A program made the position numbers. Shown here one piece after another: positions 24,001 through 27,000 of a stretch of DNA of 64,000 nucleotides. The stretch lies in the IMG/VR virus record IMGVR_UViG_3300027759_000044. One strand, 5' to 3'. The stretch's first letter is position 1, and each line of letters opens with the position of its first letter. The stretch is from a virus (lineage: Duplodnaviria; Caudoviricetes).

Positions 24001-27000
24001 TGCATCAGTAAATTTAGTAATACCTAATCCTACAGTACCTCCATATGCTGCCAACGTACCTGCATTTTCTTTTACTATTCGTTTAAATCCGTCAAGACTC
24101 ATACCTGATTGTTCTAGTTGATTATTAAGTCCGGTCATTCCATTAGAAACTAATGCACCAACACTAGCTAATTCTTGAAATGTTTTGAGACTCCTATCTA
24201 ACATTTCTAGTGCAAGTTTACTAACTTCTATTCCTGTTTTTATTACAGTTTCACTAATACTTCCTAAGGCTTGCCCAACAAATGGAATTAAACTAAATAA
24301 ACCTTTACTAAGACCTGCCATAGCATTTCCAACAACATCTACTATTGGAACTAAAGATGAAAAACTAGTTTCACCTTTTGCCAAACCAGTAGCTACTCCC
24401 CATGAGGCTTTACCAATATCTTCTGCAGATTTTTTCAAAGCGTCAGAAGATAAATTCTGTCTACGTTTTTCATTTTCAACCTCATAGGCAGCTTTTTTCC
24501 TTAAACCTTCTATTGTTTTTTTCTGAGCCGCATCAAGTTCTATGGTAGTTTTAGCAAGCTTACCATTCATATCAATAACATAACCTAATTGTTGTAATTG
24601 TTGTTTATATGCGTTTTCTTGTTTACTGGCAATTTTCTTTGATGCACCAAATTGTGTTTCTAATTCTTTACTCAGTTTTGCTTCTACTTGAATTCGGTGT
24701 TCTTCTATGGTCATCAGTTTACCGTTAATTCTGGTATAACCGGCAGATTGCTCAATTGATTTTCTTAGGTCCTTTTCTTCTTGTTCTGCTGTTTTTTCAG
24801 TAATGACAGACACTTTTTCCAATTGGCTAGCCACCTTGGCAAACCCTTCGTTCATTGCGGTCATTACTCGCATTAACTCATCAATATTAATATTATCCAT
24901 GATTTTTTACCTACTAAATATTAATAGTATTTATGATTACAAAAAACACATATTTGGAGAAAAAAATGAACACTAACCCACTTAAACAGTATTTCCGTAG
25001 ACCTGCAATCTATGTAAAATTGCCCAGCGGAGGTAACTATTATCCGGCAGGCGCCATTGATTTACCTGATAATAAGGAAATACCAGTATATCCAATGACT
25101 GCTATTGACGAAATTACAAGCAAAACTCCGGACGCATTATTCAACGGAATTGCAATAACTGAAATTATTAAAAGTTGTGTTCCTAATATCAAAGATCCTT
25201 GGGCTATACCAGCAATAGATTTGGATGCCATACTAATATCTATACGTGCAGCCACTAACGGAAATATGCTAGATGTAGAATCTATATGCCCTGCGTGTAA
25301 AGAGGACTCATCATATAATATTAATATAGTAGGTCTACTTAGTACACTAAAACCAGAATATGATGATGTGATTAAACTCAATGAATTAATATTTAAATTT
25401 AATCCACTTTCCTATAAAAAAGTTAATGAAATAAATTTAATACAATTTGAAATTGAAAAAACAATCAAAAATATTGAAAACATTACTGATAATGAAGAAC
25501 GACTACGTATTTCCGGAGAAACAATGAAAAAACTTCATGAATTAAGTATTATGTTAATTACTCAAACTATTGATTCTATATCCACACCATCAGAAATAGT
25601 TATTGAAAAAGAACATATTGATGATTTCTTAAGAAATTCAGATAAAAATGTATTTGAAACTTTAAAAAATACAGCAATTAAATTACGTGAAACTTCTCAA
25701 CTTAAACCATTACATGTAAAATGTATTCATTGTCAACATGAATATGGACAAACTATTACACTTAATGTAACTGATTTTTTCGATTAAAGCTTCTACATCT
25801 TACCTCTGGAGATATTCAGAAGCTTATTGACAATATGGAATCAGAGACAATTTCAATTAAAGAAAATTCCATACGTATGGCTTGGAGTATGCGAGGTGGT
25901 GCTTCATATGAAGATATATTGAATATGTCTAGCGATGAACGAAAAGCCATATCAAAATTAATAGAAGATAACATAGAAACAACTAAGAAATCGGGCCTAC
26001 CCTACTTCTAATTAAACCCGTAACTGTTCATTTATCATTACGGGTTATCTATGTAAAGATGAACTTCGTTCATCTAAGAACTCACTTCGTTCGTTCTTAG
26101 TTTTTACGGTTATTTATTTTCTTTTACTCTTAATTATATATGGACTATATTGCCGCTTTGAAGCCATGGTAGTGCTATTCAGCACTACCAATGGTTAAGG
26201 GTATTTGCCATGCCCGTCATCCTTTGTCATCTTTTCCCCGTCTAATCAGCTATTTGTTGCTACTAAACGCTACCGGTTGCTCTGTAAAGTTATGGGACTG
26301 TAGTGAAGCTATCAATGATCTTTCAATTGATTCTTCAGCAACGCACTTCTCACCCCGCAAAGATAAAGTAGGGGTGAGCTTGTTGAGGGTTCGCTTTGTC
26401 GATTGCCCTCTCGGTATTCCATAGTTATCACTAACTATGCTTACTCCAGATCCATCAGCGTTACCGCATCTTCAAGGAGGTCTGACAAACTCAGACAACG
26501 AATTTTTATTTGATTATGTTGTTGGGATATTAATAACAGTTTGATTTGACGTTGTGTCTGGTGTTGCTGAATAGCTTTTTAATAATGTACTGTTGTGTAG
26601 GAAAAAGTCATCAAATTCAACGATTAGCCAATCGCCAAACTTGCTTGACGAATAATAGACAAAATTGTCTGTTATCCATGTTGAGCCGCATTGCACGGCA
26701 ACATAACGACCTTTTCTATTAAACTTCATAAACAATAAATTCACATCACCGGTATCGGCAACATCCATTAATTGTTCAATCCATGTATTTATTACTTTGC
26801 AGTCACCTGAAAGTAGTAAGTGAAAAGGAAAATCAGCATAAAACTTACATTCAATATTCATTTTACTGAAACTTTGACCGGGTACAATATCACCTTTGAA
26901 AGAACGTACTTGTCCCTCATGTAATATTGCTGTTCTATGCTGATTTTTACCACCAATGTAAGCTCCGGATCCGGGTGCTCTTATAAAGCTTTCGCCATAT

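Follow-up and report, generated by a model that had tools for sequence, protein, structure and literature searches.

Introduction

A −1 frameshift is conserved in tail assembly chaperone genes and is found also in P2 E/E+E′, on a run of six Ts (Atkins et al. 2016, PMC5009743, citing Xu, Hendrix and Duda 2004). In phage lambda, the −1 slip that produces GT from G sets a product ratio of about 30:1; the tape measure is bound through the G part and the tube protein through the T part, and virions contain neither product (PMC5009743). Phage T4 is the reference contractile-tail phage, and its tail genes are treated as lacking the chaperone frameshift of other long-tailed phages. A review of the T4 tail lists gp26 and gp51 as hub assembly chaperones; gp51 is required yet absent from particles, and its function is called unknown (PMC3004832). 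Here we describe a gp26-like gene carried by a stretch of 64,000 nucleotides (nt) of DNA (hereafter the window) from a virus of the Caudoviricetes, IMG/VR record IMGVR_UViG_3300027759_000044. Sequence comparison indicates, with a probability that we put at about 0.8, that this gene is decoded in two ways by programmed −1 ribosomal frameshifting, the short product being the counterpart of gp26 and the long product that of gp51.

No report of frameshifting in gp26-type genes was found in the literature searched, subscription-only papers being outside the search, and none of the twelve GenBank records examined carries a slippage annotation.

A probable slip-site cassette at the end of the gp26-like gene

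The elements of the cassette are as follows.

24966-25787, + strand: gp26-like baseplate-hub assembly gene, zero frame, 273 amino acids (aa), ending in TDFFD and stop (PF12322 and phrog_150)
25775-25781, + strand: slippery heptamer T_TTT_TTC (of the type X_XXY_YYZ), in phase with the gp26-like frame (sequence)
25785-25787, + strand: zero-frame stop codon TAA, one codon past the heptamer (sequence)
25781-26011, + strand: −1 frame after the slip (CGA = R onward), 76 codons and a stop (translation and homology)
25787-25825, + strand: stem-loop, presumed frameshift stimulator (folding and covariation)
25835-25837, + strand: ATG required for an independent start of the small open reading frame (ORF), with no Shine-Dalgarno sequence at normal spacing

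The 273-aa product matches the Pfam family PF12322 'T4_baseplate' (6.6e-17, 62.4 bits against a cut-off of 24.5) and the phrog_150 'baseplate hub' profile (2.7e-20). It contains a zinc-ribbon-like CxxC...CxxC pair, and the four cysteines C108, C111, C253 and C256 are invariant in the protein alignment. The 3′ end of the gene reads ACT GAT TTT TTC GAT TAA. An open −1 frame, reading FFRLKLLHLTSGDIQKLIDNM..., extends from 25775 to 26011; after the slip it consists of an 18-codon bridge (25781-25834) followed by a 58-codon ORF (25835-26011). The conceptual fusion is 348 aa long, the first 272 residues being common with the short product and the remaining 76 forming an additional domain. A preliminary description of the locus had placed an in-phase T-TTT-TTC ahead of the TAA, had the −1 frame running open into the small ORF, and predicted products of 273 and 348 aa; the coordinates and the translations agree with it on each point. 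It had also stated that the ATG at 25835 lacks a Shine-Dalgarno sequence at normal spacing. Indeed, no GGAG-like motif lies within 20 nt upstream of this ATG, the nearest GGAG being about 24 nt away. The start of the gp26-like gene has a GGAG 8 nt upstream.

The cassette is unique in the window. When the 55 frames of at least 100 codons were screened for an in-phase XXXYYYZ in the last 15 codons followed by at least 60 open −1 codons, a single frame was returned. Independent DNA contigs from other samples show no insertion or deletion in the T run. Contigs from two lake metatranscriptome libraries match 25057-25584, within the gp26-like gene, and 25807-26000, within the −1 ORF, with no differences; neither spans the slip site. 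These contigs are consistent with expression in nature, DNA carry-over being also possible.

Conservation of the slip site and the −1 frame

The comparison set comprised 92 loci: 80 related IMG/VR loci (40-85% identity), ten cultured giant phages (27-34%; Atu_ph07, Phosso, Xoo-sp13, XacN1, PA5oct, RaK2, ph0011, XaC1, Serratia BF and SCTP-2) and the two T4-like cyanophages P-SSM2 and S-RIM8. Counts for the bridge, the start codon and the stem are based on 47 distinct junction sequences. A nucleotide search of a phage collection with positions 24900-26100 gave no match.

All members of the three groups (80/80 IMG/VR loci, 10/10 cultured giant phages, 2/2 cyanophages) keep T_TTT_TTY in phase, and in all 92 loci the codon before the first Phe ends in T and the first Phe is encoded by TTT. 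Every IMG/VR locus reads (G/A)AT TTT TTC GNN stop, with exactly one codon from the heptamer to the stop, and in all 80 the −1 frame measures exactly 78 codons from the FF dipeptide. The ten cultured giant phages carry T_TTT_TTC or T_TTT_TTT in phase, 1-11 codons ahead of the stop, and their −1 frame stays open for 73-90 codons, with the pattern FF-R-x-x-L-L..P-E-E-I. Past the heptamer, both the length (1-11 codons) and the sequence of the zero-frame tail vary; retained in the −1 frame are the R and then LL..P-E-E-I. A tblastn search with the −1 peptide including the bridge gave matches in Atu_ph07, Phosso and Xoo-sp13 that begin at the first residue of the peptide and lie in the −1 frame of the respective gp26 homologue.

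Within the 18 bridge codons, the −1 frame is free of stops in all 47 distinct relatives, whereas frame 0 is interrupted in 47/47 and frame +1 in 44/47; no −1 stop is present either in the bridge of the ten cultured giant phages and the two cyanophages. The entropy by codon position in the bridge (0.91, 0.53, 1.27) fits −1 coding. A T run kept in phase (92/92 loci) and a bridge without stops had both been expected in the preliminary description, and both were found.

The locus could also be read as two ordinary genes, in which the 58-codon ORF starts at the ATG at 25835 and the T run reflects conserved Phe-Phe codons in an AT-rich genome. The ATG is present in the window, several records annotate such small ORFs separately, and FF is conserved in T4 gp26 too. 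Against this, the start lacks a Shine-Dalgarno sequence, and the ATG corresponding to window position 25835 is kept in 30 of the 47 distinct relatives, the other 17 having a Leu or Tyr codon in its place; 12 of the 47 contain no ATG, GTG or TTG anywhere in the bridge. Independent initiation at 25835, named earlier as the outcome that would speak against frameshifting, is hard to reconcile with these counts. The PA5oct and RaK2 records contain no annotated downstream ORF. Moreover, the bridge codons are conserved as −1 protein over 27-85% identity, and both the natural single-frame fusions and T4 gp51 can be aligned with them (see below), and two ordinary genes do not account for the T-ending codon and the TTT that precede the shift in all 92 loci. 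We regard this explanation as very unlikely.

A stem-loop downstream of the heptamer

The preliminary description had proposed a stem of 8 base pairs starting 5 nt after the heptamer. This stem is present: AAGCUUCU (25787-25794) pairs with AGAAGCUU (25818-25825), with a spacer of 5 nt, and it encloses an inner stem formed by 25797-25801 with 25809-25813, which closes a loop of 7 nt. The minimum free energy of the window stem-loop is −13.4 kcal/mol (z = −2.87), and 2 of 200 shuffled sequences fold as well. On the 47 distinct homologous sequences, 76.9% of cells of this stem pair, compared to 31-50% when the 3′ partner is slid. Covariation, which had been suggested as a check of the stem, was found: the score is 0.269 versus at most 0.135 for the slid partner, with compensatory changes in 8 pairs. 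Pairs of the inner stem alternate between A-U, C-G and G-C among the distinct junction sequences.

Transcriptional slippage was weighed against these data. Were RNA polymerase to add one U in the T run, a minority of mRNAs would encode the same 348-aa fusion with an identical D-F-F-R junction, and the conserved element is indeed a T run of 6-7. A run of six Ts is short for productive polymerase slippage, however, the known productive cases using about nine Ts or more, and a covarying stem-loop 5-6 nt downstream together with a stop one codon later fits a ribosomal −1 shift. The phase of the run, kept in 92/92 loci, argues in the same direction, although the conserved FF codons fix the phase too. 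Slippage of the polymerase is therefore an unlikely source of the long product.

Programmed ribosomal frameshifting with similar signals is found in Escherichia coli dnaX (tau/gamma), where ribosomes shift by −1 on a heptamer that is homopolymeric and is followed by a stem-loop, with a stop close by, and two products with a common N-terminus result. The two systems differ in that the shifted product of dnaX is the shorter one, and in that dnaX has an upstream Shine-Dalgarno-like stimulator, none being seen in the window.

Natural single-frame long forms

A phmmer search of 1.84 billion representative sequences with the 78-aa −1 peptide gave 183 matches. In about 19 of these, with lengths of 319-351 aa, the match spans the last ~76 residues, from query residue 2, and PF12322 was found in front of the −1 domain in 10/10 long proteins tested. 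The junction of these natural long forms reads ...LDLDFS..FRxKLI with a single F; thus they are not homopolymer errors. A hidden Markov model (HMM) built from 19 natural long proteins scored the conceptual fusion of the window at 319.9 bits (HMM positions 3-335) and the zero-frame product at 222.9 bits. T4 gp26 and gp51 were not detected by this HMM, being too distant. An AlphaFold model of a natural long form was obtained with a mean predicted local distance difference test score (pLDDT) of 90.9 and a predicted template modelling score of 0.87, and the AlphaFold2 model of the window short product has a pLDDT of 88.6. As modelled, the extra C-terminal part of the long form is a helical domain.

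Both contigs examined in this respect carry a divergent large gene followed in tandem by a short PF12322 paralogue (276-318 aa) and a long one (334-337 aa). They represent the same locus solved with two genes. In one of them, from an uncultured relative (L090), the short (276 aa) and long (334 aa) paralogues overlap by 4 nt (1959-3790). The short paralogue ends in AAT TTT TTA, that is an in-phase T_TTT_TTA, and its −1 frame stops after one codon; the heptamer is possibly the relic of a frameshift site.

Such a remnant in a two-gene lineage lends some substance to the idea that the −1 ORF of the window is itself without function, a decaying leftover of a former gp51-like gene or fusion from which nothing is made. 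A remnant would not, however, stay open with a coding pattern over the very deep divergence sampled here, and this idea is close to refuted.

Relation to T4 gp26 and gp51

As stated in the preliminary description, T4 genes 26 and 51 are separate: they are divergently transcribed neighbours, and the TTC TTT at the end of gene 26 is not slippery. Both products match PF12322 (gp26 at 8.8e-64; gp51 at 3.9e-52 over residues 1-201) and are therefore paralogues, gp51 having about 48 additional C-terminal residues. The phrog_150 profile is covered to position 280 by T4 gp51, to 235 by T4 gp26 and to 227 by the window short product.

The additional residues of gp51 are related to the −1 domain. A direct BLASTP comparison of the −1 product with T4 gp51 gave no significant match, and the link required profiles and cyanophage intermediates. 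Alignment of a −1 domain profile with T4-like gp51 tails using hhalign gave E 3.5e-5 and a probability of 72% over 32 columns, a moderate rather than overwhelming match. In the cyanophages P-SSM2 (L100:1171-2066) and S-RIM8 (L101:1171-2069), the end of gp26 is AGT TTT TTC GNA stop; in the −1 frame, FFRI... leads directly into the small ORF labelled 'gp51' in their records. The P-SSM2 −1 product matches T4 gp51 residues 200-246 (BLASTP, 2e-6) from the second residue of the peptide, and the −1 domains of giant phages and cyanophages align jointly with the T4 gp51 tail. Since the gp51 tail is homologous to the −1 domain and both T4 proteins belong to PF12322, gp26 is the counterpart of the short product and gp51 that of the fusion. 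From these alignments, the small cyanophage 'gp51' ORFs are identified as the 3′ part of the −1 frame.

The preliminary description had called the small ORF of the window gp51-like. This holds in that the small ORF and the C-terminal tail of gp51 are homologous. It needs correction in that gp51 is a full-length gp26 paralogue with a tail, so that the equivalent of gp51 is the whole fusion and not the small ORF alone, for which the label 'gp51' stems from cyanophage annotation.

The window proteins thus share with T4 gp26 and gp51 a homologous N-terminal body, with its CxxC...CxxC pair and C-terminal FF motif, and the division into two forms, of which only the long one has a helical C-terminal domain of about 50-75 aa homologous to the gp51 tail. 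The genes of both phages lie in a tail and hub gene neighbourhood. Unlike T4, which has two paralogous genes and no slippery site, the window has one gene from which a −1 frameshift would give both forms. In addition, about 15-20 aa, among them a W-[YF]-M-R-G-G motif, are inserted in the giant-phage −1 domain relative to T4 gp51. The cyanophages have the same layout as the window, the heptamer lying one codon ahead of the gp26 stop; their −1 domain is shorter (about 60 aa) and nearer to T4 gp51, and their records give two separate genes and no slippage.

In a tree of the shared domain, T4 gp26 groups with T4-like gp51s, and natural long forms interleave with frameshifting genes. The topology hints at more than one switch between frameshift and two-gene encoding. 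This tree was not relied on because T4 gp26 lies on a long branch and a single short partner was available. The spread of the frameshift encoding makes it plausible that it is ancestral and was kept in this lineage.

Two further observations concern T4 gene 26. The start of gene 25 overlaps the final base of the stop codon of gene 26 (TAATG; L009:3801-3805), and gene 25 hence lies in the −1 frame of gene 26; as TTC TTT at the end of gene 26 is not slippery, no gene 26/25 fusion is expected. T4 gp26 (L009:3803-4429) also weakly matches phrog_1140, the family of gp28 'baseplate hub distal subunit' (E 9.4e-4), and a distant relationship between gp26 and gp28 among small hub proteins is possible from this match.

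Genomic context and comparison with G/GT-type chaperones

The window encodes a major head protein, a protease and a portal (20326-22116), gp46/gp47-type nuclease genes, the late sigma factor gp55 and a baseplate operon, and is therefore part of a large T4-related phage. This giant phage is uncultured and of freshwater origin; more than ten studies have yielded freshwater or lake metagenomes in which the window DNA occurs. The neighbour of the gp26-like gene is listed below.

22144-24900, − strand: context gene, 918-aa virion protein, probably tape measure (VanY-like peptidase domain, Atlas clusters and orthologue annotation)

The VanY-like domain, which we take to be D-Ala-D-Ala carboxypeptidase-like, covers residues 720-795 (1.9e-5, 24.9 bits against a Pfam cut-off of 25). 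Most of the nearest named Atlas clusters are tape measure proteins, and the record of the RaK2 orthologue annotates it as similar to tape measure. In the RefSeq record of PA5oct, the orthologue is flagged as a virion protein by mass spectrometry and the gp26-like protein has no such flag, which is weak evidence that the latter is absent from virions. No real similarity was detected between T4 gp29 and the 918-aa protein by BLASTP. Taken as a lead, the domain, cluster and annotation matches suggest that this protein is probably the tape measure. The same divergent large neighbour is found in PA5oct, RaK2, XaC1, BF, Phosso and L090. A gap of 65 base pairs separates it from the gp26-like start; the two genes are divergently transcribed, and the gap would hold the promoters of both. 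Annotation of the window revealed no tube gene near the gp26-like gene, and no tube protein elsewhere in the window.

Two other genes of the window were noted. A single open frame of 5917 aa (43766-61519, + strand) lies in the baseplate operon, after the gp6-like wedge gene (40356-43739). A sulfotransferase-domain gene (29172-29873, − strand; PF00685, 5.2e-14) lies between the gp47-like and gp46-like nuclease genes.

The gp26-like locus resembles lambda G/GT in that two products with a common N-terminus would be made by a −1 frameshift near the 3′ end, as the cassette and its conservation suggest. In both phages, the gene lies beside a tape-measure or tape-measure-like gene, and the products are described as assembly factors and not as virion parts (for T4 gp51, PMC3004832). 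Unlike in lambda, the window gene is divergent from the tape-measure-like gene instead of upstream and co-directional, it does not lie between tube and tape-measure genes, and its protein is about double gpG in size. The adjacency of the pair to a tape-measure-like gene, put forward in the preliminary description, is thus correct as to position, although the tape-measure-like gene is divergent, neither co-linear with the pair nor downstream of it.

No homology to known G/GT-type chaperones was found. Pfam searches with the window product returned only PF12322 and no tail assembly chaperone family, and a sequence search of the PDB found no relative. The matches from fold searches were all either generic helical hairpins or further PF12322-type 'baseplate hub' proteins; the best structural hints, 3klu/YqbN (Z 4.4) and an AFDB 'tail assembly chaperone' (E 0.078), are within noise. 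The claim that the locus is a G/GT-type system is therefore retained for its two-form logic and tape-measure context and not as homology to known chaperones: it is a functional analogy rather than membership of a family.

Discussion

Programmed −1 frameshifting would operate at this locus as follows. Most ribosomes would end at the TAA at 25785 and release the 273-aa protein. A fraction would pause on U_UUU_UUC (25775-25781) before the stem-loop at 25787-25825, where both tRNA-Phe could re-pair one base back, and translation would continue in the −1 frame (R-L-K-L-L...) to 26011. The product of the slip would be a 348-aa protein with the same first 272 residues and a 76-residue helical domain. 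We infer from the signals and their conservation that slipping takes place, and with an efficiency that leaves the long form the rarer one. By analogy with lambda G/GT, the shared body may bind the same assembly partner in both forms, probably the hub or the tape-measure complex encoded next door, and the extra domain of the rarer long form may recruit or position a second component. Neither product would remain in the virion.

Several observations weigh against this reading or limit its reach. The FF dipeptide is itself conserved, T4 gp26 ending ...KEFFELL with FF encoded by TTC TTT, and part of the conservation of the T run could therefore be a protein constraint. RNAalifold applied to all 47 junction sequences gives no consensus structure, and the named structure was counted pair by pair instead. 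The most distant subclade folds differently, and the obvious hairpin in Atu_ph07 and Phosso sits 18-19 nt downstream. Finally, the chaperone role of the window products and the identity of their partners are presumed, and fold searches with two confident models (PDB Foldseek, VIA-align, AFDB clusters, Swiss-Prot and BFVD) show no tail-assembly-chaperone fold above noise.

A broader proposal, which we advance tentatively and at somewhat less than even odds, is that the gp26/gp51 family is the T4-superfamily counterpart of G/GT. A short and a long form in a set ratio may be generally required in tape-measure-based tail and hub assembly, and may be encoded either by a −1 frameshift, as in giant T4-related phages and cyanophages, or by duplication, the solution seen in T4 and in some uncultured lineages; the encoding may have changed from one to the other more than once.

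If this is true, the long-unexplained 'catalytic' gp51 of T4 would gain a concrete role as a GT-like adaptor. Independently of this proposal, the frameshift reading of the locus makes the short and long forms one unit, which many T4 relatives would make from a single gene through recoding; it also suggests a mode of working for gp51 that can be tested. The annotation of giant phages and cyanophages would be corrected, small 'gp51' or hypothetical ORFs, or empty gaps, being the 3′ part of a frameshifted gene. A new protein family would join the classic case of stoichiometry set by frameshifting in virus assembly, and the two encodings of one pair, frameshift and duplication, would offer a natural comparison.

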